A stretch of DNA of 20,000 nt. Origin: an uncultured virus (IMG/VR IMGVR_UViG_3300029448_000026) (lineage: Duplodnaviria > Heunggongvirae > Uroviricota > Caudoviricetes). Below the pieces are notes generated by a model, which was given only the letters and a program-made list of their open reading frames with translations, did not search any database and was not told the DNA's origin. Below, piece by piece: positions 1,118-20,000 of this stretch (position 1 is its first letter; every line of letters begins with the position of its first letter). The stretch spans positions 44,124 to 64,123 of IMG/VR virus record IMGVR_UViG_3300029448_000026. One strand, written 5' to 3'. Both the position numbers and the translations under genes were made by a program.

Positions 1118-1614
1118 TGGGTTACCGTAGCGATGTAGTCATTGCACACTCTTTCATTTCTAAGAGCCACATGGAAGAGGTGCTTACCGTACTGACATTG
1201 GATAAGAGGTTTGCTGAGTACAAATTGGCAGACCACGTCTACACCAGCGAGGAGTACATACCACATGAAGACAAGTATATGTTTAACCTTGTGGTGGTTG
1301 GCGAACAATGGAAGTGGTATGAGGAAAGCCAATTTGGTGGGTATGAGGATGTAGCTTGCATTAATTCCTTACTTACAATCTGCCAAGATTTTAACACAGA
1401 AAGGGGTGTACCATACGCATACAAGTTTCTACGTATTGGTGAAGACGTGACCGATGAAGAGATGCGTGAGAAGGCAAGTGATTGTCAACATGGGGAATGG
1501 CTTGGAGAGATGCAAGATCGGGTCATGTTTATAAACAGAACAATAGAAAACGACTTCGCTAACTTACAATCAGTTAGTGGGTCACTAACCGAAAAGGAGA
1601 ATGACAATGAGTGA
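1117..1614 (+). CDS. Phage hypothetical protein (165 aa, acidic)
   Basis: Coupled to the upstream gene (TAATG), with GAGG upstream; function not recognised. Confidence 0.85.
   Translation: MGYRSDVVIAHSFISKSHMEEVLTVLTLDKRFAEYKLADHVYTSEEYIPHEDKYMFNLVVVGEQWKWYEESQFGGYEDVACINSLLTICQDFNTERGVPYAYKFLRIGEDVTDEEMREKASDCQHGEWLGEMQDRVMFINRTIENDFANLQSVSGSLTEKENDNE
1573..1589. promoter_or_regulatory. Palindromic operator-like site, copy 2
   Basis: GTTAGT GGGTC ACTAAC, 4 nt before the AAGGAG RBS of the next gene. Confidence 0.75.
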
Positions 1615-2920: not shown

Positions 2921-2951
2921 ATGCCAGTTCCACCACTATTAGGGAGAAACG

Positions 2952-3104
2952 ATGAAGACAGAAGATTTACCAACTGATTTAACTTTGTTCCTGAGAGAGA
3001 TGGGATTAATTGAGGACATGGCTTTACCAAATAAAACGGTTAGTGCTACACTAACTTACAAGGTGTGGTTACCAACAAATAAAGAAGAGGAGATACCGTT
3101 TTGA
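2952..3104 (+). CDS. 50-aa microprotein ending in EEEIPF (not in the ORF track)
   Basis: GGGAGA RBS; MKTEDLPTDLTLFLREMGLIEDMALPNKTVSATLTYKVWLPTNKEEEIPF; its stop overlaps the TTG start of the next gene (TTGA). Confidence 0.7.
   Translation: MKTEDLPTDLTLFLREMGLIEDMALPNKTVSATLTYKVWLPTNKEEEIPF
3039..3055. promoter_or_regulatory. Palindromic operator-like site, copy 4
   Basis: GTTAGT GCTAC ACTAAC, 45 nt upstream of the VRR-NUC start. Confidence 0.75.
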
Positions 3105-3451: not shown

Positions 3452-3617
3452 TCGGTGTTTTTTTGAGTTTGACACCGAGTAAGACAAGCAGTGAGAGTCT
3501 TACGACATGGAATATCCACTGCAACAAGAGGTAGTCTTAGTGTTAATGATGCACCTCCAACTACTGATCTTGTCGAGTAGGGTACGTAAAATCTAGCCCC
3601 CTACTGTAATAGGGGGC
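3452..3617 (+). ncRNA. Structured intergenic RNA candidate (hairpins and an H-type pseudoknot)
   Basis: Several complementary segments: 3452-59/3471-78, 3479-85/3497-3503, 3488-93/3517-22, 3524-29/3568-73, 3596-3603/3610-17. Confidence 0.4.
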
Positions 3618-3637
3618 GACTAAAAAAGGAGAACGAT

Positions 3638-3982
3638 ATGAGTATAGCTGACGAATTTAAACTTAGAGAAATACCAAAAACAAAGGGTTGGTACGCACCA
3701 AATAGGCGTAGACTGGTTAAGACAAAGTCTGGCAAGGTGCAGGTCCGAAAAGTAGCCGTAAAGATTGGGCTTAAAACGAATAATGTAGCAAAAGAAAGAG
3801 CTGAACGATTGAACAAAAGAAAAGAAAAGTATGAAGCCTACACGAAGAAGAGTGAGGAAATTAAGCTCTGGACTCTACGCGAGTTACTAATATTCTTGGA
3901 GGGGCGCGATCCCAAGAAGTCTGCCACTGTTTCTAACATTGTGAATGATATAGTTAGAGGTAAGTATAATGACGAGGGATGA
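3638..3982 (+). CDS. Basic hypothetical protein (114 aa)
   Basis: AAGGAG RBS; K/R-rich, possibly nucleic-acid binding. Confidence 0.8.
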   Translation: MSIADEFKLREIPKTKGWYAPNRRRLVKTKSGKVQVRKVAVKIGLKTNNVAKERAERLNKRKEKYEAYTKKSEEIKLWTLRELLIFLEGRDPKKSATVSNIVNDIVRGKYNDEG

Positions 3983-7417: not shown

Positions 7418-7428
7418 AGGAGAACGAA

Positions 7429-9010: not shown

Positions 9011-9406
9011 ATGGATATAAGTAAACTAATAAAAACCTATATAAAAATACGAGACCAACGTTCCGTATTGAAATCAGACTATGCCGACAAAGACTCCACT
9101 TTACTGAAACAACAAGACACTATTAAAGAAGCTATCAATGAGTATGCTGACATGAATAAGGTCGATAGAGCAGGAACAAGTGAGGGTATGTTTTATAGGA
9201 CTACAAAAACCAGATACTGGACAAGTGATTGGGAGTCTATGTACAAGTTTGTTGTAGAAAATAAAACACCAGAGTTCTTTGACAAACGTCTAAATCAAAA
9301 AAATGTAAGGGAGTATTTAGACGAGAACCCAGACAAACTTCCAGAAGGATTAAACGTAGATACGGAGTATGTCATATCTGTTAGGAAAAATAAAAATGAT
9401 AAGTGA
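9011..9406 (+). CDS. Phage hypothetical protein (N-terminal coiled coil), replication-module associated
   Basis: GAGG RBS; YIKIRD coiled coil, DWESMYKFV and LPEGLNV segments. Confidence 0.85.
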   Translation: MDISKLIKTYIKIRDQRSVLKSDYADKDSTLLKQQDTIKEAINEYADMNKVDRAGTSEGMFYRTTKTRYWTSDWESMYKFVVENKTPEFFDKRLNQKNVREYLDENPDKLPEGLNVDTEYVISVRKNKNDK

Positions 9407-9638: not shown

Positions 9639-9653
9639 TAGTTGGAGAACGAC

Positions 9654-10337
9654 ATGAGCGAGAGCTACAAAATAGAGAACGTTGAGGCTTTATGGCCTAA
9701 GATAAATACTACCTATAGATTTGACAGTACCGAAAACAGATCTGTACCTTGCAGTGCTTTGGATGATAATTCAGAGTACAGCTTACAATTTAAAATGGAT
9801 GAAGCGACTGCTCAAGCTTTATATAAGCCAATGAGTTCAGCCTATAAAGCAAAAAAGCAGAAAGGTTGGGAGGACAAGTTACCTTTACCTTTTGAAAAGG
9901 ATGAAGAAGGTATGTACATTGGTAAGGCACGTCTAAAGGGTGCATACGGTGCAGACCCCACTAGAAAGCCATCACAATATGATGCGAAAGGTAATAGACT
10001 TGATTCCGATTTTAAACTTACCACTGGCAGTAAGATAAATGTGCTTGTTGGTTTTTATCCTTGGAATATGGGGGGAAGATCTGGCGTATCGTTAAGATTA
10101 AAAGCAGTGCAAGTTGTTAAATATATACCTATGGAGGAGTCTTCTCCTTTTGATGAGGTAGAGGGATTCAATTCTTCTTCTGAAATGGATCAAGTATTTT
10201 CGGATACTACGACTGAGAAAGAAGAGGTCATTGAAGAACCAAAGAAACTAACTCCGAAACCTGATAAAAAAGAAGTAAAGACACCCCAACAGGCAACGAG
10301 TGAGTTAAGTGATATTGTTGATAGTTGGGATGACTAG
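9654..10337 (+). CDS. Single-stranded DNA-binding protein (DUF2815/T7 gp2.5-like)
   Basis: LTTGSKINV, GVSLRLKAVQVV OB-fold signature; acidic tail ending DIVDSWDD; GGAG RBS before ATG 9654. Confidence 0.82.
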   Translation: MSESYKIENVEALWPKINTTYRFDSTENRSVPCSALDDNSEYSLQFKMDEATAQALYKPMSSAYKAKKQKGWEDKLPLPFEKDEEGMYIGKARLKGAYGADPTRKPSQYDAKGNRLDSDFKLTTGSKINVLVGFYPWNMGGRSGVSLRLKAVQVVKYIPMEESSPFDEVEGFNSSSEMDQVFSDTTTEKEEVIEEPKKLTPKPDKKEVKTPQQATSELSDIVDSWDD

Positions 10338-10352
10338 TAAGCAATAGAACTT

Positions 10353-10412
10353 CACTGTGGCTAGGGCATTGCGCCCCGAAAAGAGTATAATGCAAATACT
10401 CCTGCCACGGTG
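10353..10412 (+). ncRNA. Three-way-junction RNA candidate in the primase leader
   Basis: P1 CACTGTGGC/GCCACGGTG, P2 GGGC/GCCC, linker CGAAAA, P3 GAGTAT/ATACTC; loops partly complementary. Confidence 0.55.
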
Positions 10413-10432
10413 TCTTTATTAGGGGTGGTATT

Positions 10433-13219
10433 ATGGAAACAAAACAATTTTTACAGAGCGTAGTAGCTTCAGAAGGTTACTACTGCGTATGGGGTTTTAA
10501 AGGTGACCGACTCGTAACCAAGTTTTACGACTCCATTGATAAGGTCATAGATACAGCTACAAAACTAGACAGCAATGGATACAATGCTTTCTTTGCATTG
10601 GCGACATTTGAAAAGTCTGGCTCTAGAAAAGTAGAGAATGCCAAACAATATAAGTCTTTCTTTCTTGATTTAGATTGTGGCGATAAGAAAGATTACCCAA
10701 CTCAACAGGATGCTTTGACAGCCCTCCGTGGGTTTTGTAAGAAGAATACTTTACCTAAACCTGTTATAGTGAGTTCTGGTAATGGGGTACATTGTTACTG
10801 GCCTTTGGAAACTCCTATTATATATAGTGATTGGTTTCCTGTGGCTGAAAGGTTAAAGGCTCTTTGCGCAGAACACAATCTACTAGCAGACCCTGCTGTT
10901 ACATCGGACGGTGCTAGGGTACTAAGAGTACCAGAAACACATAACCACAAAGGTGATACACCTATAAGAGTTCACGCAATAAGTAGTAATATAACAACCA
11001 TACCTTTCCACGAATTTTCAGAGTTAATTGGCGAGATAATACCTGCACCTAAAACTCTTCCTATGAACCAAGTTGATAGTAAAGTTGCTGATAGTACAGA
11101 AGCATGGTTTGTGGACATAATAAGAAAGACAAAAGAAGGTAGAGGGTGTGAACAGATAAAGAATATCATTATAAATCAAAAAGATATAAGCGAACCTTTA
11201 TGGAGAGGGGGGCTATCTATAACAAAGTTCTGTGTTGATTCTGAAGAAGCGTCTAAAATAATATCCGAAAAGCACTTAGAATACTCAGAAGAAAAAACAC
11301 AAGAGAAATTAGACCTTATAAAGGGGCCTTATTGGTGTACTACATTTGACGAACATAACCCAGATGTATGTCCGAATTGTCCTAACTGGAAGAAGGTAAA
11401 AAGCCCGATTGTTCTGGGGAATAGAATTATAGAATCAGAAGAGGACATAAAGAAGGCACTGGCTATGGATCTGCCAGAAGATGAAGAGATGGATTATAAA
11501 GTACCATCAAAATACCCTTCGCCCTACTTTAGAGGATCTAATGGCGGTGTATACATGAGGTATAAAAACGCTGATGGTGACCCAGAAGATAAGTTAATAT
11601 ATCACAACGATCTATATGTTGTGAATCGTATTACAGATGCAGAAACTGGAGAAGGTGTCGTGATGCGTCTACACTTACCCAGAGATGGGGTAAGAGAATT
11701 TACAGTTCCTTTAACTGCTGTAACATCAAAAGAAGATTTTAGAAAACAACTGTCCATGCAAGGTGTGGCAGTTCCAAAAATGGATGACCTTATGAAATAC
11801 ACTACAACATGGGTAAACGAGTTACAGGTGCAAGAAATGGCAGATATAGCTCATAAACAGTTTGGTTGGACTAATGATGAATGTGGTTCATTCATACTAG
11901 GTAACAAAGAGATATCAAAAGATAGTGTCAAGTTTAATGCACCATCTTTGCAAACAGCTAGTTTCTTTCCTTATTTTGAACCTAAAGGTGAGCTTGAAAA
12001 GTGGAAAGAGATGATAAATTTTTACGATAGAGATGATTTTGAACTACACCAATTTGTTGTCGCAACTTCTTTTGGTTCCCCTTTGATGCAATTTTTGCCC
12101 ATACACTGCGCTACTTTACATCTGCATGGAGATACAGGCATAGGTAAAACAACTGTCCAGATGGCCGCAGTGTCGGTTTGGGGCAATCCATCACAACTTA
12201 TATGTTCAGAAAATGATACAGTTAATACAAAGATGAATAGGGGCGAGGTGTACCGTAACTTACCGTTATATATTGACGAGTTAACAAATGAGAAGCCTAA
12301 AGACCTAAGTGATCTAGCCTATAGACTTACTGGTGGTAGGCAAAGAAATAGAATGTCTGCTGGTTCTAACGTGGAAAGATATCGGGGTGAACCTTGGAGA
12401 CTATTAGCAGTAACTAGTGCTAATGCAAGTATTGTAGAAATGATAAGTATGATAAAGATAATGCCGAAAGCAGAAGCGCAAAGGATATTGGAATGTAAGA
12501 CAAAAGAGATGAGGTTTGATACAAAAGAGGAGACAGATGCGTTTAGTTTACTCCTCACCCATAACTATGGTCACGCGGGTAGGATATATCTTAAATCTAT
12601 ACTGAATGATATAGAAGGCGTTAAGAAATTATTAAAAGAAGTCCAGATTAAGATAGATACCACAGCAGGTCTTACAGCGAAAAATAGATTTTGGTCTGCT
12701 TTAACTGCATGTTCATTGACAGGTATTATATTGGCTAAGAAAGCAGGGCTTGTAAACTATGATGTAAAGAACCTTTTTAAATGGACTGTGGGTCAGTTGA
12801 AACGTAACTTACATATGTCTAATGACATGTCTGCCTCTGTAGAAGAAGTTATAAATGATTACATACATGAACACTGGAGTAATGTCCTTTGGATAAAAAG
12901 TACAGATGATCTCAGGGGTAAGGAAGGTGATGAGATATCTACACTTGTTGTACCAGAAGCTGTACCCAGAGGTAAGTTAGTAGCAAGGTATGAAACCGAT
13001 TTAAAGAAAGCTTATCTCCTACCTAAACCGCTAAAGAAGTGGTGTGTAGAACAACAGATAAATTATACTTCTTTTATTCAAGATTTAAAACTTAAACTAA
13101 ATGGCAAGAAAGGTAAGGTGAGACTTAGCAAAGGTACGCACATGAACTTACCGCCTACTCATGTTATTATAATAGATTGCACTATACAAAATGAGACAGG
13201 AAGTACTGAAGAACTTTGA
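10433..13219 (+). CDS. Primase-helicase: AEP/RepB-like primase, Cys4 domain, DUF927 and P-loop helicase
   Basis: AEP motifs FLDLD, SSGNGVHCYW, RVLRVP; Cys cluster; FGW of DUF927; Walker A GDTGIGKTT; Walker B YIDE. Confidence 0.9.
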   Translation: METKQFLQSVVASEGYYCVWGFKGDRLVTKFYDSIDKVIDTATKLDSNGYNAFFALATFEKSGSRKVENAKQYKSFFLDLDCGDKKDYPTQQDALTALRGFCKKNTLPKPVIVSSGNGVHCYWPLETPIIYSDWFPVAERLKALCAEHNLLADPAVTSDGARVLRVPETHNHKGDTPIRVHAISSNITTIPFHEFSELIGEIIPAPKTLPMNQVDSKVADSTEAWFVDIIRKTKEGRGCEQIKNIIINQKDISEPLWRGGLSITKFCVDSEEASKIISEKHLEYSEEKTQEKLDLIKGPYWCTTFDEHNPDVCPNCPNWKKVKSPIVLGNRIIESEEDIKKALAMDLPEDEEMDYKVPSKYPSPYFRGSNGGVYMRYKNADGDPEDKLIYHNDLYVVNRITDAETGEGVVMRLHLPRDGVREFTVPLTAVTSKEDFRKQLSMQGVAVPKMDDLMKYTTTWVNELQVQEMADIAHKQFGWTNDECGSFILGNKEISKDSVKFNAPSLQTASFFPYFEPKGELEKWKEMINFYDRDDFELHQFVVATSFGSPLMQFLPIHCATLHLHGDTGIGKTTVQMAAVSVWGNPSQLICSENDTVNTKMNRGEVYRNLPLYIDELTNEKPKDLSDLAYRLTGGRQRNRMSAGSNVERYRGEPWRLLAVTSANASIVEMISMIKIMPKAEAQRILECKTKEMRFDTKEETDAFSLLLTHNYGHAGRIYLKSILNDIEGVKKLLKEVQIKIDTTAGLTAKNRFWSALTACSLTGIILAKKAGLVNYDVKNLFKWTVGQLKRNLHMSNDMSASVEEVINDYIHEHWSNVLWIKSTDDLRGKEGDEISTLVVPEAVPRGKLVARYETDLKKAYLLPKPLKKWCVEQQINYTSFIQDLKLKLNGKKGKVRLSKGTHMNLPPTHVIIIDCTIQNETGSTEEL

Positions 13220-13418
13220 TTTAGACCCAGACCATGTTAGAATTATTGTAAATTGGGGCAAGATGGTCGTAAATGCATCGGTGTTTGTACCTTGTGTAAA
13301 CACTCAAAAGGCCACACAACAAGCAAAAACTATAGCTAAAGAGAAAAGCTGGGAGTTCAAAATACATGTTCGTATAGAGGATAACAAACTTGGAATCCGT
13401 ATATGGAGGTTATTGTGA
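13191..13418 (+). CDS. Small hypothetical protein, possibly DNA-binding
   Basis: 75-aa ORF with SVFVPC and a C-terminal GIRIWR; overlaps the primase end. Confidence 0.75.
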   Translation: MRQEVLKNFDLDPDHVRIIVNWGKMVVNASVFVPCVNTQKATQQAKTIAKEKSWEFKIHVRIEDNKLGIRIWRLL

Positions 13419-13534
13419 TGTGGCAAGGTAACATATTTAGGTATGTAAATTATTGGTTAGGCACAAGGAGAATGCCTATTATTAGATTAAAACATAAAGT
13501 GAGAAACAGAAAATGGTTATCGAGAGTGCATTAA
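13418..13534 (+). CDS. Possible 38-aa basic microprotein
   Basis: GGAGG at 13405-13409, TGATG overlap; MWQGNIFRYVNYWLGTRRMPIIRLKHKVRNRKWLSRVH. Confidence 0.4.
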   Translation: MWQGNIFRYVNYWLGTRRMPIIRLKHKVRNRKWLSRVH

Positions 13535-13911
13535 TTTGTTTAGCTATGAACATCTACCATGAGGCTAGAAGTGAACCCGTAGATGGTAGGGTTGCAGTTG
13601 CAGAAGTTACTTTGAATAGGGTTGAATCAAAATACTACCCAGATACTGTATGTTCTGTAGTCTACCAGAAAGGTAAAAAAGCATGTGCCTTTAGTTGGAC
13701 TTGCGATGGAATTTCAGACACGCCATACGAAGAAAAAGAGTTTAACAGCGCAAAAAGATTGGCAAGAATGATAATGTTAAACAGAGAAAGCGTACACGAA
13801 GTCGGCAAAAATGCAACACATTACCATAATAAACGTGTAAAACCCTACTGGTTAACAGACGTAGAGCTAATAAAACAGGTAGGTAACCATATTTTTTACA
13901 AAAGAAAGTAG
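13513..13911 (+). CDS. SleB/CwlJ-like cell wall hydrolase (Hydrolase_2)
   Basis: CLAMNIYHEARSE (catalytic Glu), VTLNRV, YPDTVCSVVYQ, FSW, ATHYH, V.PYW, GNHIFY. Confidence 0.92.
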   Translation: MVIESALICLAMNIYHEARSEPVDGRVAVAEVTLNRVESKYYPDTVCSVVYQKGKKACAFSWTCDGISDTPYEEKEFNSAKRLARMIMLNRESVHEVGKNATHYHNKRVKPYWLTDVELIKQVGNHIFYKRK

Positions 13912-13938
13912 TCAAACTATATATTGGTGTGGTACATT
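13909..13938 (+). promoter_or_regulatory. Extended -10 promoter for the candidate sRNA
   Basis: TAGTCA (13909-14), 18-bp spacer, TACATT (13933-38) preceded by TGn; predicted TSS about 13945. Confidence 0.5.
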
Positions 13939-13944
13939 GTGCGT

Positions 13945-14007
13945 GGCAGTATCCTCGCACTGTCGTTCTCCCTCCTAAACTCCCCCTTTAATTAGGGGGG
14001 GTTTTTT
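13945..14007 (+). ncRNA. Candidate trans-acting anti-Shine-Dalgarno sRNA (~63 nt)
   Basis: 5' hairpin GGCAGT/ACTGTC, unpaired GTTCTCCCTCCT, terminator; TGTCGTTCTCC is complementary to the RBSs at 9644, 1596, 3628 and 7419. Confidence 0.6.
13977..14007 (+). terminator. Rho-independent terminator between convergent units
   Basis: AAACTCCCCCT-TTAATT-AGGGGGGGTTT stem followed by a T run; A-rich left flank could allow bidirectional use. Confidence 0.85.
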
Positions 14008-17000
14008 ATTTAATATTCAGAGGGGGAAACAACCCAGATTCTTCTAGTATGTCAAAAGTAGAAAGCATTTCATTAATTGCATCTCTATTCTTTTCTGTTA
14101 GCAGTACACCAAACTTCATTTTTTGAGATGTTTCTACGAATTTTTTACGTGATCTAAGTAACGTTTTCATATCTATAACATTGAATGGGTGTTTAAGATT
14201 AAAATCCATCATGGCTGACTCTGTTTCTATCCGCATAAGTATATCCCCATTTAATATAGAGTTATTCCACATACGTAGTAGCTTTGACCTTTTCGCATTT
14301 ATAGCTGTATCTAACTGTTTTGAAACTCTAGCCTTTGTCTGTGCTTGTGTTAACCTGTTAAACCCAAAACCAAAACCAGTAATAGATTTTTCAAAGAGGN
14401 NNNNNNNNNTTCGTCTTCTGTGTACCTAAATGCTTTACGTGCATTTCTGATTGAGGCTGGTAACATATTTTCTATACCTCTACCCATGTTACCATCTTCT
14501 GACATGATTTCTTTGAACCCATTATATAACTGCCTACCTACACTACCCGCTGGACCAAGAAGCAATTCGTAAGTAAACACTTCTGGTGACCATTCTTTTT
14601 GGTAAGGGTTGGATCTAAATAGTAAATTAGATAGTCCAATACGTGTAGACACGTCAGCACCTGACATTGCAGTAACGGCCCCTTTGTACCACCCTTCACC
14701 TACGTACATTCTCACAAGGGTATCTGCGTCTAGTTCATCGTCATCTAAGAACAGGTCAGCTATCATGGTAACTATGCCATACATAGGTAGCCCTCCGACC
14801 CCTGCTAAAAACAAGGAGGAACCTACCATACCTACAAGTTGCCTAAAAGCTATCCTTTGTTCTTCGGGATTAGTATAAGCATTCTTGACAAGTGATCTGG
14901 CTGTCTTAAACATATTGTAGTACATCATGATGCCAAAGCCCTTATACATCATGGCAACTCTACCTACACCTTGTTGTGCTATAGGTGGAGCAGTATCTAA
15001 CAATGCACCGCCATTTATAAGTTGTGTATTATAAACGGCAAATTCGGCAGCACGTTGTTGCTTCTGTGTAGGTGTTAACGCTTTCTCNNNNNNNNNNCTG
15101 GCGTAGGTTTATTTGTAAGCCTGTCTAACTCAAGATTATATGAACCCATCAAAGCTATTTGCCTGTTGAACCTCTCGACTTGATGAAACATACCTGCTGA
15201 AATTATTTGGAATCTATCAAGGATACCAGTTCCTCGCTTAGTACCCTCTATACCAAGAGTATCAAAGAATATTGATCTGTTTAGCTGTCCTTGTTGCTCT
15301 GCAACCTCGACTAGCTTTTGCATGGTTTTTAATTTTTCTATAAAACCTTTTGAGTACTTGCCATCTTTTAGTACGCTATCTTTTATCTGGTAATTACCCT
15401 GCGCATCTAATTGGAAATAATTATCAATAGATGGGGCTGCAGCTACATCTTTGTATATACTACCCTTAACACGTTTAGACAAACGTATCTTATTACTGAA
15501 ACCACTATTTGTGTAGAAACGAGCTGCGTCTATAAACGCTTTACTTGATTTTAAATAACCGAACCTACCGCCTAGCATCGGAGCCATAACAAGTGGTATT
15601 TGTGATAGGTTAACAATAGCAGAGGAAGCGTTCAACCCCAGTGTAAATGTAAAAGCAAACCTGTTACCAAGTATAGCTAATGCATCTGGAGGGGGGTTCA
15701 TAGCAAACCTTCCTCGCTCTATCAGGCTTTCTATGATAGCTCCTTTTGTGCTATCACGGTCTACTTTCATATCTAAAAGCCTGTCTATTTCTTTTCTAAA
15801 CAAGTCTGCGTATCTTATCTTTTCTACTTGCCTAGCGAGATCATAACCTTTTGTTTTTAGACCGTATATTATGTCTTGGTTGTACCCCAGAGTTCCTTCT
15901 CTTTTAGCGAAAGACTTGGCAAAGCTAGATTCTGGCAGAGCTTCTATAAATAACTGTAGCAAAGAGTCTCTTGTCTCTTGTGGTATCTTCGTCTTTGAAC
16001 CATCTAATACTTTTAACATTTCTGCCATAAAAGATGTAGATGGTGGATTTTTGTATGCTCTATTGTATTGTGATGGTTTCTCAAAAGACTCTATATTATT
16101 AACTCCGTACCCACTTTGTAATCTTTTTACTGCTCTTCTTCTTTGATTTATACTTTCAAACGCCATTACGACACGTTCTTCTTTGTTAAACTTTTCGTCA
16201 AACACATCGAATGCAAGCCAATACTGGCCTTTTCTAACTAGAGGTATGTAGGGTTCAAGTTTTGCCTTCTCAAATAACTTACTGAATATTTGACTTTTTA
16301 ACTTGTTTTTTGTTCCTTGGTCTATAGGACTACCGTCTTCTCCTGTAAGATTATTTATTTTACCTTCAATAGTTTTCTTTAGTTTCTCAAATAAACTTTT
16401 GTATTCAGCTACAACAAGTTTAAAAGCTTGTTTACTATCTGGGTCGAGAGTTTCGTAATCTTTTTTCACTATCTCCCAATTTTGAAACTCTTCGGTATTT
16501 TGTCCGTATTTATCAATAGCTTGTTTTCTATCCAATGTAGGATCTACCTGTAGCCTAGTAGCGTCTGTGGACATTTCGTTAAACTTATCCATTTTAGCTT
16601 TAGGCACTAATGATTTTATTGATTCTATAGTACCTTCTACAGATTGTTGCGCCTTGTTAATATCACCCTGTTGCCCCCTAAGTAAGGTATCCATAGTATA
16701 TGCTTCATCTATACCTGCATTACCTGCAAAATCACTTACTGCATTAGAAGGTAGAAATCTAAAAAATATATCCCGCCCTTTTTTAGACATGAATGACAGT
16801 ATACCCATAGACTCTTCTATGTACTCTTTAGTAGCTGTTTGACTAGGGCTAGGAAAATTAGATGATACTTCTTGTATGTTTTTCATAAACTTTCTTATAG
16901 GGGTAAAGTTTAATCTTTTACCTTCTGCGACTTCTTGAGAGGGAGCAATAAGATTTTCAAGTATTTCCATTGATTCATCAAACACGGTAGTGGGTTTGAC

Positions 17001-20000
17001 ATTTGGTTCTCCACCTATTCTACCATTTAGGAAACCTACTATGTTGTTTTTAAATCTATCCCATAGAGATACTTTAATTGCAGGAGCTTCTTTACGAGGG
17101 GATTTTATTTCTTGCAGGGTGCTTCTAAAACTAACATTGCTTAAAGCTTCTGAAAGAAAATCATCTAAGGAGACAATACTTACATCTCCCCCAAGAGTAT
17201 CCTTAACATCTTTATGTAGTAATTTAAGACGACTTACAAACGCTTGTGCTTTAGGATCTCTCAACGCTTTGTATGTCACAGCATGTATAAGTTCATGCAG
17301 TATAACATGTGTATTCATACCCTGTTGGCTATTAAGGTATATCGTGTTTTCTTTAGGATCATACGCACCATATGGAATATCGTCACCTAGTTTTGTATTT
17401 TCTTTTACAACAAATACGCGTGGGTTGCCCATATCGTTAATTAATCTTCTAAGAAGTTTTTCTACCGTTCTATTAGCGTTCTTAAAGTAATTTGATGTTT
17501 CTTTTGCATCTATTAAATCCTGTAAGGCTTCTTTAAATAGAGCTGGGTCTTTATTTTTAGCTGATTGTCTTATCTTTGCACTTACGTTTGCAGGTAACTC
17601 TCTCCCCTTTACAAGATCTTTTTTGTATTCGGACTTTGACAAGGCTATTTGTTTTCTGTAACCCGCAATTTCTTTGCTTATTTGTTCATTTAAATAAACA
17701 TTTGCTTCTTTCGATAGATTTTTTGATACCCATTCTTTGGCTAACAGAGCATTAGTTGTACCCGTGCCTTTATAAAATTCTTTATCAAAACGTGGATAAT
17801 CAGTTGTTCGTATCGTAGCAGACCCCTCTGCTATATCAGACGCAATATTATCTAACACAGCTTGAGGGTAAGCTGATCGTCTAAAATACATTTGTGCTTT
17901 GCCTGCTGGGTTTGATTTGTCTCTAGTTGTTAAGGCTTTTTTAGTTAGACTAAGTATTTCTCTAAAATCATCATAAGTCGCAGGATCATTTATTTTAATT
18001 TTCTTTGGATCTTTAGGATCTACTTCTTCTCTGTAAGCTTTACCATCTTTACCCACTTCAGGCATTGCATATTGATCTACACCCTCTTTGTCAGTTTTAG
18101 GCGCTACTGCTAAATTTTTCTGTAAGTCTTCTATAACTTTTAGTTTATATTCACCTTCTTTTTTCTGCCTTAATTTTCTATTCGCTTCTTTTATAACTTC
18201 GTTAGGGTCTTCAAACTTGCTACCTTTTAATTTTTTGGTAGGAACTTGAGCATTTTTGTTTATAACATCAGTACGTGCCATAAAAGATCCAAACCCTTCA
18301 GCCTCTTTACCTAACGAGTTTAACCCACTTTTAAAATCTTCTGGACTCATGTCTATACCCAAAGCATCTGCTGTAGCTACGTTGTCTTTTACAACATCAT
18401 TGTTAGTAGCCATTTCCATGCGGTCTCGTATGTAATCATCAAGATCTGAGCTTAGATTAGGTCTTGATTCAGCATCTGGGTCAACAGCATCATCAGTTAT
18501 ACCAAACTTCCCTGAATCTTTTTTATCAATGTCTTCTTCAGCAGTAGCAGCGCGACCCTGATCTTCAATGATTTCTTCTTTAGGAGTAGCAGCGCCAGTG
18601 TCTTCATCAATTTCAATACCGTATTTTTGTTTTAGTTCGTTAAACGCTTTATTTATACGTTTATCACCTGCAGGTGCTTTTGGTAAATATATACCATTGT
18701 CAGTAAATATTTTTCTTGTTTGGATGGGTAGAATCGTATCAACAAGATCATCAGGATCTACATTTTGAATAAAATTTAAAGAGCGATTTTTTAGTGATGT
18801 GTCTTCTTGCTCTTGGACTCCATCTGTTTCTCCAGCAGGTCTTCCACGATCTCCCAATCCAACGGATGTAGATGATGCAACTCCTTTGGTATCGTTGCTT
18901 GGGAGTTCTCCAACCACGTTTTGTATACTACTTGAAACGCCAACTCCAGTTGTTTCTTCGTCAGTTTGCTTGATATCATCTTTTTTTCGCGCTAATAACG
19001 TTTCTTTTATTTTTTCTTTTAAAAAGTTTTGTTCATCTGTTAAAGGTTTTTTGAGTTTACCTTCTTCAGATAACGTACCTTTAAGATTTTTATAGGTATC
19101 ATCTATTGTAGGTACTGTTTCTTTAGTTTCAACTGTTTCTTTTGGTTTTGCTTTTGGGCTTGGTGCGGTTATTTTTTTTGGTGGAGGTTGTTGTATCTTT
19201 TCTTCAATATCAGAATCAGTTACACTGCCACGTTTTCTAACCGCAAGGTCTAATATTCCTTGTACAAATGCACCTACAGCTCCGCCATACGCAGCCTCTT
19301 CACCAGTTTGCTCAAACAAGTCTTGTTGTGGGTTGTAACCTTTTGCAATAGCATTTTGTAAAATACCTGCTACAGCTTCTTGCCCACCTTCTATACCTCC
19401 TGATGCTGCAGCCCTATAGGCTCTTTTAAATAAACTAGCTCTTTCTCCAGGACTAAGAACTTTTAACAATTTAATTGGCAAGAGTTCTGTAAGACCAACA
19501 GCCCCACCTAAAAGAGCAGCTTTGTTTCTTTCTTCTTGTGTTGTGCCAAAAGCTCGCGCTCTTTCACTTGCTTCCCCTGCTCCTGCTCCTATTGCTGTAG
19601 ATGCTGCTAAAGGAAGTCCAACATATGGTAGTAAAGATGTTATACCTAATGCACCAAAAGAACCTAATGCCTCACCAAACCTACGAGGTACAGAGTCTTC
19701 TAATCCTGGCGCAGCTTTAGTAGCATCTAATTCAAAAAAATCTTTTACACCTTTTCTAGCTTTTAATTCTGTTTCTTCACCAAAAGGAGTTATAGCGCCA
19801 AGAGCTGCCGACTCAAACATTTGTACTGCCCCTGCCCTTGTTCCTTTTTGGAACTCGTTTAGTAAGGAAAGTATCCCAGGATCAGTTTTTGTTTGTCTAG
19901 TTAGGTAAGGAGATATGTAAGGTGTGGAGGTAGGTGTTACAGTAGACTGTCGTTTTTGTTGTTGTTTTCTAGAATATAGATCAACTAATTCATTCCAAGT
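14006..20000 (-). CDS. Large polyvalent virion/ejection-type protein (~2,000 aa or more; start beyond the window; two N gaps)
   Basis: Frame open from 20000 to the gap at 15097; resumes at 15087 (EKALTP...) in frame with ORF 14350-15003, and at 14398 (LFEKSIT...) in frame with ORF 14006-14272. Contains a Gly/Ala-rich hydrophobic N-region, GAYDP/HELIH/SEALSN zincin motifs and PYIPLVRKGQY (PLxRFG-like). Confidence 0.85.
14400..14409. other. Assembly gap (10 N)
   Basis: Run of Ns causing an apparent frame break. Confidence 0.99.
15088..15097. other. Assembly gap (10 N)
   Basis: Run of Ns causing an apparent frame break. Confidence 0.99.
18791..18979 (-). CDS. Candidate overprinted +1-frame ORF (62 aa) nested in the giant gene
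   Basis: Amphipathic, protein-like sequence overlying a low-complexity stretch of the main frame; preceded by an A7 run. Confidence 0.4.
   Translation of the reverse strand: MISSKLTKKQLELAFQVVYKTWLENSQATIPKELHHLHPLDWEIVEDLLEKQMESKSKKTHH

Follow-up and report, generated by a model that had tools for sequence, protein, structure and literature searches.

Accounts of phage programmes mostly invoke promoters, sigma factors and protein repressors, and the known phage antisense RNAs mostly have a single gene or the host as target. Small RNAs (sRNAs) with an anti-Shine–Dalgarno (anti-SD) motif that pair over the Shine–Dalgarno (SD) site and the spacer block loading of the 30S subunit; AbcR sRNAs depend on Hfq. 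The c4 antisense RNA has a role in heteroimmunity, with RNA and target showing matching changes between phages P1 and P7. It is described as a trans-acting repressor RNA of these phages (Rfam RF01695; PMC8546580), and its Rfam family is listed in PMC2864571. For the cuckoo RNAs of Alphaproteobacteria (CcsR; RSs0680), an exposed C/U-rich anti-SD motif is proposed to occlude several ribosome-binding sites (RBSs); these RNAs have 2–4 adjacent hairpins with an invariant CCUCCUCCC in each loop (PMC4615179). Further base-pairing RNAs—P22 sar/sas, lambda OOP/aQ/PreS, VP882 VpdS, BTP1 STnc6030 and DicF—tune phage development or exclusion; in the part of PMC12197685 that treats them they are cis-antisense to one gene or mainly host-directed, and none is described as recognizing an RBS tag common to several replication genes of its own phage.

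A shared tag is known from Cluster K mycobacteriophages, whose SAS/ESAS elements (13-bp GGGATAGGAGCCC, 11–19 near-identical copies) form an extended RBS tag before non-structural genes that reaches beyond 16S pairing; some of the tags have inverted repeats upstream, and four K1 genomes each hold one reversed copy (PMC3203893). Whether the SAS partner is RNA or protein is left open in the relevant part of that paper and likewise of PMC11373665.

Here we analyse the final 20 kb (the window, 20,000 nucleotides) of the 64,123-bp record of an uncultured marine phage, in which an annotation made from the letters alone (the initial annotation) had placed a candidate sRNA complementary to the RBSs of four phage genes. 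Our main reading, to which we give a probability of about 0.7, is that the phage encodes a trans-acting antisense RNA that would repress translation of several of its own early and replication genes.

Genome setting

Early and replication genes lie on the plus strand—a family A polymerase, an exonuclease, an SNF2 helicase, an HTH protein, a Gp2.5-like SSB, a DUF927 primase-helicase and a cell-wall hydrolase—and virion genes on the minus strand. GC skew flips at about 14,000, and the RNA unit is located exactly at the early/late strand convergence, behind two genes:

13191–13418, plus strand: 75-aa ORF, weakly linked to DUF7303; its TGA stop supplies the TG-A of the RNA promoter in most relatives
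13513–13911, plus strand: cell-wall hydrolase (PF07486), separating the 75-aa ORF from the RNA gene in the window's seed class and no other

The capsid protein shares 57–70% identity with those of MinM2, HTVC023P, DSL-LC04 and CRP-901/902. HTVC023P-type pelagiphages and CRP-901-type roseophages are thus alike to the window phage in capsid protein but far apart in replication proteins, the primase being less than 30% and the polymerase less than 35% identical to any cultured phage. Pseudomonas phage Rollin and Rhizobium phage RHph_TM27A have the layout of the helicase–primase arm in common with it; the RNA model found no match in the stretches of Rollin, RHph_TM27A and DSL-LC04. Among 51 genome ORFs scanned (not all of those present) there is no integrase, repressor or antirepressor. 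A first genome-collection scan returned no relatives. In a second, the closest were short MAG contigs of many taxa, not integrated prophages, and these single out no host or prophage.

Two 10-N gaps (14400–14409 and about 15090) split one giant virion gene into frames of 1,581, 217 and 88 aa; the first is bridged by 47 bases in contigs of three runs. A GroES-like co-chaperonin lies among the head genes (L115:6192–6626, minus strand), and a 104-aa early ORF (L115:17035–17349, plus strand) contains a direct repeat of about 30 bases (KTEKENAEKAE twice), within which GGAGAAC occurs. The SSB–primase spacer, which is the primase leader, holds an Rfam int-alpA RNA match (10354–10425, plus strand; 41.8 bits against a gathering score of 35.8); eight related loci gave no gathering-score match to that model.

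A predicted promoter-to-terminator unit

Positions 13930–14007 are organized as an extended −10, a 6-bp 5′ hairpin, a 12-nt open C/U linker and a terminator:

13930–13938, plus strand: extended −10 element (TGnTAnnnT), TGGTACATT, 6 bases ahead of the RNA start; putative function, from conservation
13945–14007, plus strand: predicted small RNA of about 63 nt, from fold and conservation in relatives
13945–13964, plus strand: 5′ hairpin, 6 bp with an 8-nt loop AUCCUCGC; its 3′ arm lengthens the match to some targets
13965–13976, plus strand: open C/U-rich seed GUUCUCCCUCCU (anti-SD plus anti-spacer), unpaired probability at least 0.97; covaries with RBSs
13977–14007, plus strand: intrinsic terminator with a U-run, the top terminator-scan hit, 11 pairs
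13742–13960, minus strand: 72-aa GTG ORF, rejected as a gene

The RNA region folds at −25.3 kcal/mol (z −4.5), and 1 of 200 shuffles was equally stable. This fold bears out the hairpin, the unpaired stretch behind it and, with the terminator scan, the strong terminator of the initial annotation, whose coordinates and strings for the unit were all correct on recheck. No ORF is carried on the plus strand of the unit. Promoter, hairpin, open linker and U-run are all oriented to that strand; on the minus strand the terminator lacks a U-run, and late transcription may therefore pass through the unit. The terminator probably also ends the replication operon.

The proposed promoter fared less evenly. 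Its string and position are right and its spacing is conserved in relatives, but a consensus −35/−10 scan, whose 54 hits are no more than chance, did not pick up 13930–13938, and the case for it is therefore one of conservation. Spacing is constant in 14 of 14 metagenome matches of the window's seed class while the n positions vary (L331 equals the window here). In most relatives the TGA stop of the small ORF doubles as the TG of the extended −10, with the hairpin beginning 7 bases past the hexamer; in the window's seed class the hydrolase gene intervenes and the motif is retained without any stop codon. With the held-out clusters described below positioned by the upstream stop codon rather than by the motif, TGATA is present in 21/24 and T at −7 in 23/24; T at −7 occurs in only 15/33 of the discovery set, where extraction required TG.TA for most rows.

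Conservation in relatives

Searches with primase and SSB gave a discovery set of 103 related loci (primase identity within the group, 56–89%). A unit of the same plan stands at the end of the replication arm, after the 75-aa ORF behind the primase, in 62 of them; the remainder are mostly truncated, and two lineages are without it. There are 35 distinct unit sequences, the window included, in ten seed classes that follow the primase tree, and the RNA model finds one match per genome. The first 30 RNA bases are 100% identical in three loci (L013, L015 and L032) whose upstream flanks are 40–95% identical. Contigs of four runs contain the unit's DNA. One related contig diverges upstream of 13944 with the unit unchanged; as it may be an assembly chimera, it was left uncounted.

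A more distant search returned 80 loci, 76 of them new, and the unit is at the same position in 44 of the 76, these having passed an automatic filter (primase end, small-ORF hit and a terminator within 150 bases). Five of the 44 were dropped as near the discovery set, and the rest form a held-out set of 24 clusters below 72% primase identity. The RNA model R1 is narrow: it misses class H, and in 52 distant loci it gave 21 matches at E up to 3, one probably false. Across these 21, in an alignment fitted to the structure, two-sided changes affect 6/6 pairs of the 5′ hairpin and 9/11 pairs of the terminator. The terminator stem is wholly different in sequence between seed classes, yet its pairing is always kept; the 5′ hairpin is absent in classes G and H. 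These comparisons support a conserved small-RNA gene with a predicted RNA product.

The two lineages without the unit lie next to class B and include the near-complete records G006 (98%) and G007 (100%). Because R1 is narrow, this absence rests also on the junction sequence and on a permissive scan, which finds the unit in eight of nine unit-bearing genomes (G010 was missed; an earlier, stricter scan missed four). Loci L057 and L066 were assigned to the unit-less lineages by tree, and L061 by junction. The unit is dispensable in some lineages.

The initial annotation had named a competing explanation itself, that the sequence is simply the RBS of the minus-strand GTG ORF. This was rejected: across the 35 sequences the counterpart frames range from 4 to 77 aa and the start codon is missing in three, so the ORF is not a conserved gene, and it has no Pfam or PHROG match.

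The plan of the unit varies in several ways. Some class A phages (L003/L004 and L009/L010) carry an extra plus-strand gene just past the terminator, and the strand switch is therefore not a constant location of the unit. Class B RNAs (L041, L045, L059, L067, L068 and L091) have a second C/U-rich motif, CCUCC, in the loop of the 5′ hairpin, which is cuckoo-like. The RNAs of classes G and H (L047, L092, L054, L069 and L100), lacking the hairpin, begin with CAU, complementary to a start codon and separated from the anti-SD by an SD distance. Two loci, L227 and L247, have short tandem repeats between the small ORF and a displaced promoter–RNA unit.

Predicted targets and their tag

The candidate target sites, with the tag-associated palindromes, are as follows:

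9644–9654, plus strand: RBS and first start-codon base of the Gp2.5-like SSB; best predicted target (−17.7 kcal/mol), orthologue RBS covaries
7419–7427, plus strand: RBS of the SNF2 helicase; predicted target, orthologue RBS covaries
1596–1606, plus strand: RBS of a 341-aa gene without family assignment, probably starting at 1607; predicted target
3628–3638, plus strand: RBS of a 114-aa gene of no family; predicted target with few orthologues
2942–2951, plus strand: RBS of a 50-aa ORF; weaker predicted target
9011–9406, plus strand: 131-aa gene after the helicase (DUF7307 on 21–31% of look-alike clusters); RBS covaries with the seed in relatives
6–22, 1573–1589, 2869–2885 and 3039–3055, with six more in L115 at 14528–18726, no strand: 17-bp palindromes

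Positions 13961–13971 are, as claimed from the letters, the exact 11-nt reverse complement of the SSB site. Only GUUCUCC of this match is accessible, since the other four bases (TGTC, 13961–13964) form the 3′ arm of the 5′ hairpin (unpaired probability at most 0.01), and the full 11-nt duplex requires stem opening or strand displacement. The lesser matches were confirmed as strings: 11 nt to 1596–1606 and 3628–3638, each with one C>T difference that makes a G–U in the duplex, 9 nt to the helicase RBS, and one with a bulge to 2942–2952. Co-folding predicts stem opening for the SSB, 1607 and 3638 duplexes, and pairing through the linker alone for helicase and 2952; after SSB, the energies are −14.5 (1607), −14.1 (helicase), −13.1 (3638) and −12.2 kcal/mol (2952). 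Untagged G-rich starts (4219 and the polymerase) bind the RNA as strongly as tagged ones in the same calculation, so part of the binding signal is generic anti-SD pairing.

The motif GGAGAAYGA, which the initial annotation took to mark a dispersed regulon, has five matches in the window against 0.26 expected, a number reached in 0/200 shuffles. All four plus-strand copies stand just ahead of a start codon, and the sole minus-strand copy is inside the RNA unit. Over the 64,123-bp genome, with simple gene calls, GGAGAA precedes 9/27 early-strand starts against 3/48 late-strand starts; early genes also have stronger generic SD sites than late genes. The tag extends beyond four genes and differs by lineage, which makes the putative regulon looser than one fixed motif. 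The DUF7307-like gene is untagged in the window genome, and GGAGAAC is found in 0/5 class A RBSs of this gene.

The palindrome GTTAGT-N5-ACTAAC has ten copies, all in the early region and several preceding a tagged RBS (six in L115, where 0.01 are expected). Of ten relatives, G002, G004, G006, G007 and G008 carry 6–9 copies and the other five 0–1; the palindrome is present also in lineages without the RNA. It looks like an operator for a phage DNA-binding protein. Immediately before the tagged RBS of the 3638 gene lies a G+C hairpin (3596–3617), and similar hairpin-plus-RBS units occur in L028, L092 and G004, each with its own lineage's tag.

Seed and ribosome-binding sites change together

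By eye, the complement of the seed and the helicase RBS change in step: GGAGAACGA goes with GGAGAAC, GAGAAAGAGAG with GAGAAAGAGAA, GGGAGAGTG with GGGAGAGTT and GGAGTAGTTATG with GCGAGTAGTTTG. We compared cognate and non-cognate duplex energies at class level in a permutation test, with row and column means removed. In the discovery set the cognate effect has p = 5e-5 for the helicase (nine classes), p = 5e-5 for the DUF7307-like gene (ten) and p = 0.0015 for SSB (ten), and p = 0.07–0.97 for seven control genes; in a linker-only version one control, the primase, reached p = 0.046. Helicase and SSB had been named in the initial annotation. The DUF7307-like gene was picked after the discovery data had been viewed, and the test was for that reason repeated on new loci.

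For the held-out test the genes were fixed beforehand and the whole RNA was used, structure included, over the 24 clusters. It gave p = 5e-5 for the DUF7307-like gene (n = 23), p = 5e-5 for SSB (n = 8) and p = 0.015 for the helicase (n = 19), with five control genes at p = 0.16–0.75. The check for seed/RBS covariation that the initial annotation had suggested is thus positive in both sets. In whole records of nine unit-bearing genomes (six classes) there is a cognate effect over all early-strand starts (exact p = 0.0014) and none over late-strand starts (p = 0.85). All of these p-values overstate independence, because classes and clusters share descent.

Presence and absence of the tag follow the same lines. 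GGAGAAC occurs in 1/13 distinct RBSs of the unit-less lineages against 14/19 in sister class B and 6/14 in class A; among held-out clusters it occurs in 11/18 RBSs where the RNA has GTTCTCC against 2/32 where it does not.

The fit is far from complete. The cognate seed is the best in only 5–6 of 9–10 rows of the discovery test, the SSB RBSs of classes F, G and H do not fit their own seed, and L015 has the window's seed with untagged RBSs in its SSB, 1607 and 3638 orthologues; the target set shifts between relatives. The asymmetry expected of RNA pairing, in which G–U but not A–C is tolerated, was sought in both sets with low power, most matches being perfect and the flanks purine-rich, and neither set showed it. 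Discovery values were G>A 24.7 versus A>G 18.6 and C>T 4.4 versus T>C 0.9 (Wilcoxon p = 0.78), and in the held-out set the comparison of real with mirror orientation gave p = 0.20–0.71. G–U asymmetry does not favour RNA pairing over plain sequence identity. Taken across lineages, comparison shows seed and RBS tags co-evolving as a putative lineage-specific address code.

Proposed mechanism and alternatives

In the main reading, a host sigma-70-type polymerase would start at 13945 from the extended −10 and stop at the U-run, yielding about 63 nt, and read-through from the replication operon would end at the same terminator. The 5′ hairpin and the terminator are computed to keep the 12-nt seed open. 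GUUCUCC would nucleate on the GGAGAAC tag, that is, the SD site and the start of the spacer, and for SSB, 1607 and 3638 the duplex is computed to extend into the 3′ arm of the hairpin, up to or next to the start codon. Such a duplex over SD and spacer would exclude the 30S subunit. Given a host-type promoter and a gene that replicates with the genome, the RNA should accumulate in the course of infection, whether in step with genome copy number or as the 3′-terminal part of the replication transcript; it may then slow or time the production of helicase, SSB and early proteins, with virion genes spared.

A broader idea, on which we lean slightly to the sceptical side, is a private RNA address system: in a large group of uncultured aquatic phages, an RNA of about 60 nt would read a lineage-specific code in the RBS spacers of scattered early and replication genes, turn these genes off as genome copies accumulate and so serve as an RNA-only early-to-late brake, possibly with kin-specific superinfection exclusion. 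Its logic may be general among phages and could explain orphan extended-RBS tags, the SAS of Cluster K being one.

Among alternatives the one that survives best, though we think it unlikely, is that exclusion is the actual role: the RNA of a resident phage would silence the early genes of a later phage of the same class, and seed classes would be immunity groups. Ten seed classes within a group of 56–89% primase identity, the early-strand specificity and the host-type promoter all suit this, as does the precedent of c4 in P1/P7 as a trans-acting repressor RNA (PMC8546580). It is weakened by the lack of an integrase or repressor among the 51 ORFs scanned (again, not all ORFs), by closest relatives that are short MAG contigs instead of integrated prophages, and by a GUUCUCC seed common to many distant clusters, which would be poor for private immunity.

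Somewhat less probable again is that a protein reads the tag (a RegA-like repressor or activator), with 13961–13971 as a minus-strand decoy in late read-through RNA or as a DNA site, and that no RNA–RNA pairing takes place. Identity alone explains the covariation equally well, late transcripts may cross the unit, and the SAS tags of Cluster K are invariant without a conserved antisense partner. A minus-strand decoy sits badly with a promoter, protective 5′ hairpin, open linker and U-run that all face the plus strand; the protein would need to change specificity at least as often as there are ten seed classes, and all four plus-strand tag copies are at SD distance from a start codon.

We regard as improbable a general anti-SD silencer, acting mainly on host mRNAs, to which the phage RBS matches would be secondary. 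The seed does contain CCUCCU, the 16S anti-SD core, and untagged G-rich starts bind well; phage sRNAs with host targets are also known (PMC12197685). Against this, the phage's own early RBSs track the seed rather than escape it.

Least probable of all is that there is no regulatory RNA and that a terminator adjoins a degenerate RBS cassette in inverted orientation (or the minus-strand ORF's RBS), homogenized by recombination between the cassettes of early genes: these genes have a repeated cassette in common (17-bp palindrome plus RBS) and most classes have a start-like triplet after the antisense SD, but the antisense ORFs are of 4–77 aa or without a start codon, matches of 7–12 bases are too short for gene conversion, promoter spacing is conserved, the 5′ stem covaries, and the first 30 bases are invariant while the flanks drift.

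We retain the antisense RNA as the main reading, and regard the predicted RNAs as a genuine phage small-RNA family without earlier description, for whose pairing to the phage's own RBS tags the comparative evidence has been replicated. If true, one RNA acting on several targets and co-evolving with the RBS spacers of the phage's replication genes would add another level of temporal control, here in phages with capsids like those of abundant marine groups. Natural matched and mismatched seed–RBS pairs and two loss lineages are available, as is a natural set of semi-orthogonal RNA–RBS pairs, and the reading offers a concrete hypothesis for the extended-RBS repeats of other phages.

Comparison with known RNAs and tags

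Rfam gave no match on the unit to E 5 in the window and no hit at gathering score in eight related loci, and its models of cuckoo, AbcR and c4 (RF01695) did not match the unit in any of these. We found no description of the RNA in the literature searched or in Rfam; the part searched of the supplement to PMC10690425 (10,000 candidate viral RNAs, where the motif may be listed unnamed) held no match.

On the target side the SAS of Cluster K is a parallel in layout only. It has no sequence relation to the window tag, GGAGAAY(GA), which has 4–9 copies and varies by lineage; common to both are the bias to non-structural genes, inverted repeats upstream of a subset and one reversed copy. In Adephagia a long conserved hairpin in the gene 92–93 spacer (L154:33640–33720; record about 58640–58720) carries the single reversed SAS in its loop, behind a conserved TTG...TAGACT promoter-like motif and where late transcription begins. 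Of seven further phages compared, Validus and Amelie preserve the anti-SAS loop, DarthP, Unicorn and TClif have a drifted version of it, and ShedlockHolmes and SirPhilip have lost it. SAS itself is fixed in the four Cluster K genomes checked, despite drift or loss of the loop in five of these seven other phages, so no loop–tag covariation is seen in the Cluster K phages compared, and the Adephagia loop is a weak lead as a counterpart of the window RNA.

The initial annotation had likened the RNA to cuckoo and AbcR, a likeness that holds as functional resemblance but not as membership by hairpin motif or Rfam. Where cuckoo RNAs present an invariant motif in hairpin loops, the window RNA has a single 5′ hairpin with loop AUCCUCGC and no CCUCCUCCC; its motif occupies a single-stranded linker, has an anti-spacer portion and is lineage-variable. 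From c4, an RNA that is processed and directed at one antirepressor operon of a temperate plasmid phage, it differs in having its own promoter and terminator, another fold and several dispersed RBS targets in the replication arm, those that covary being helicase, SSB and the DUF7307-like gene in place of an antirepressor operon. What the window RNA shares with trans-acting sRNAs in general, judged by conservation, is a promoter and a terminator without a coding frame, together with an accessible seed that shows compensatory change.
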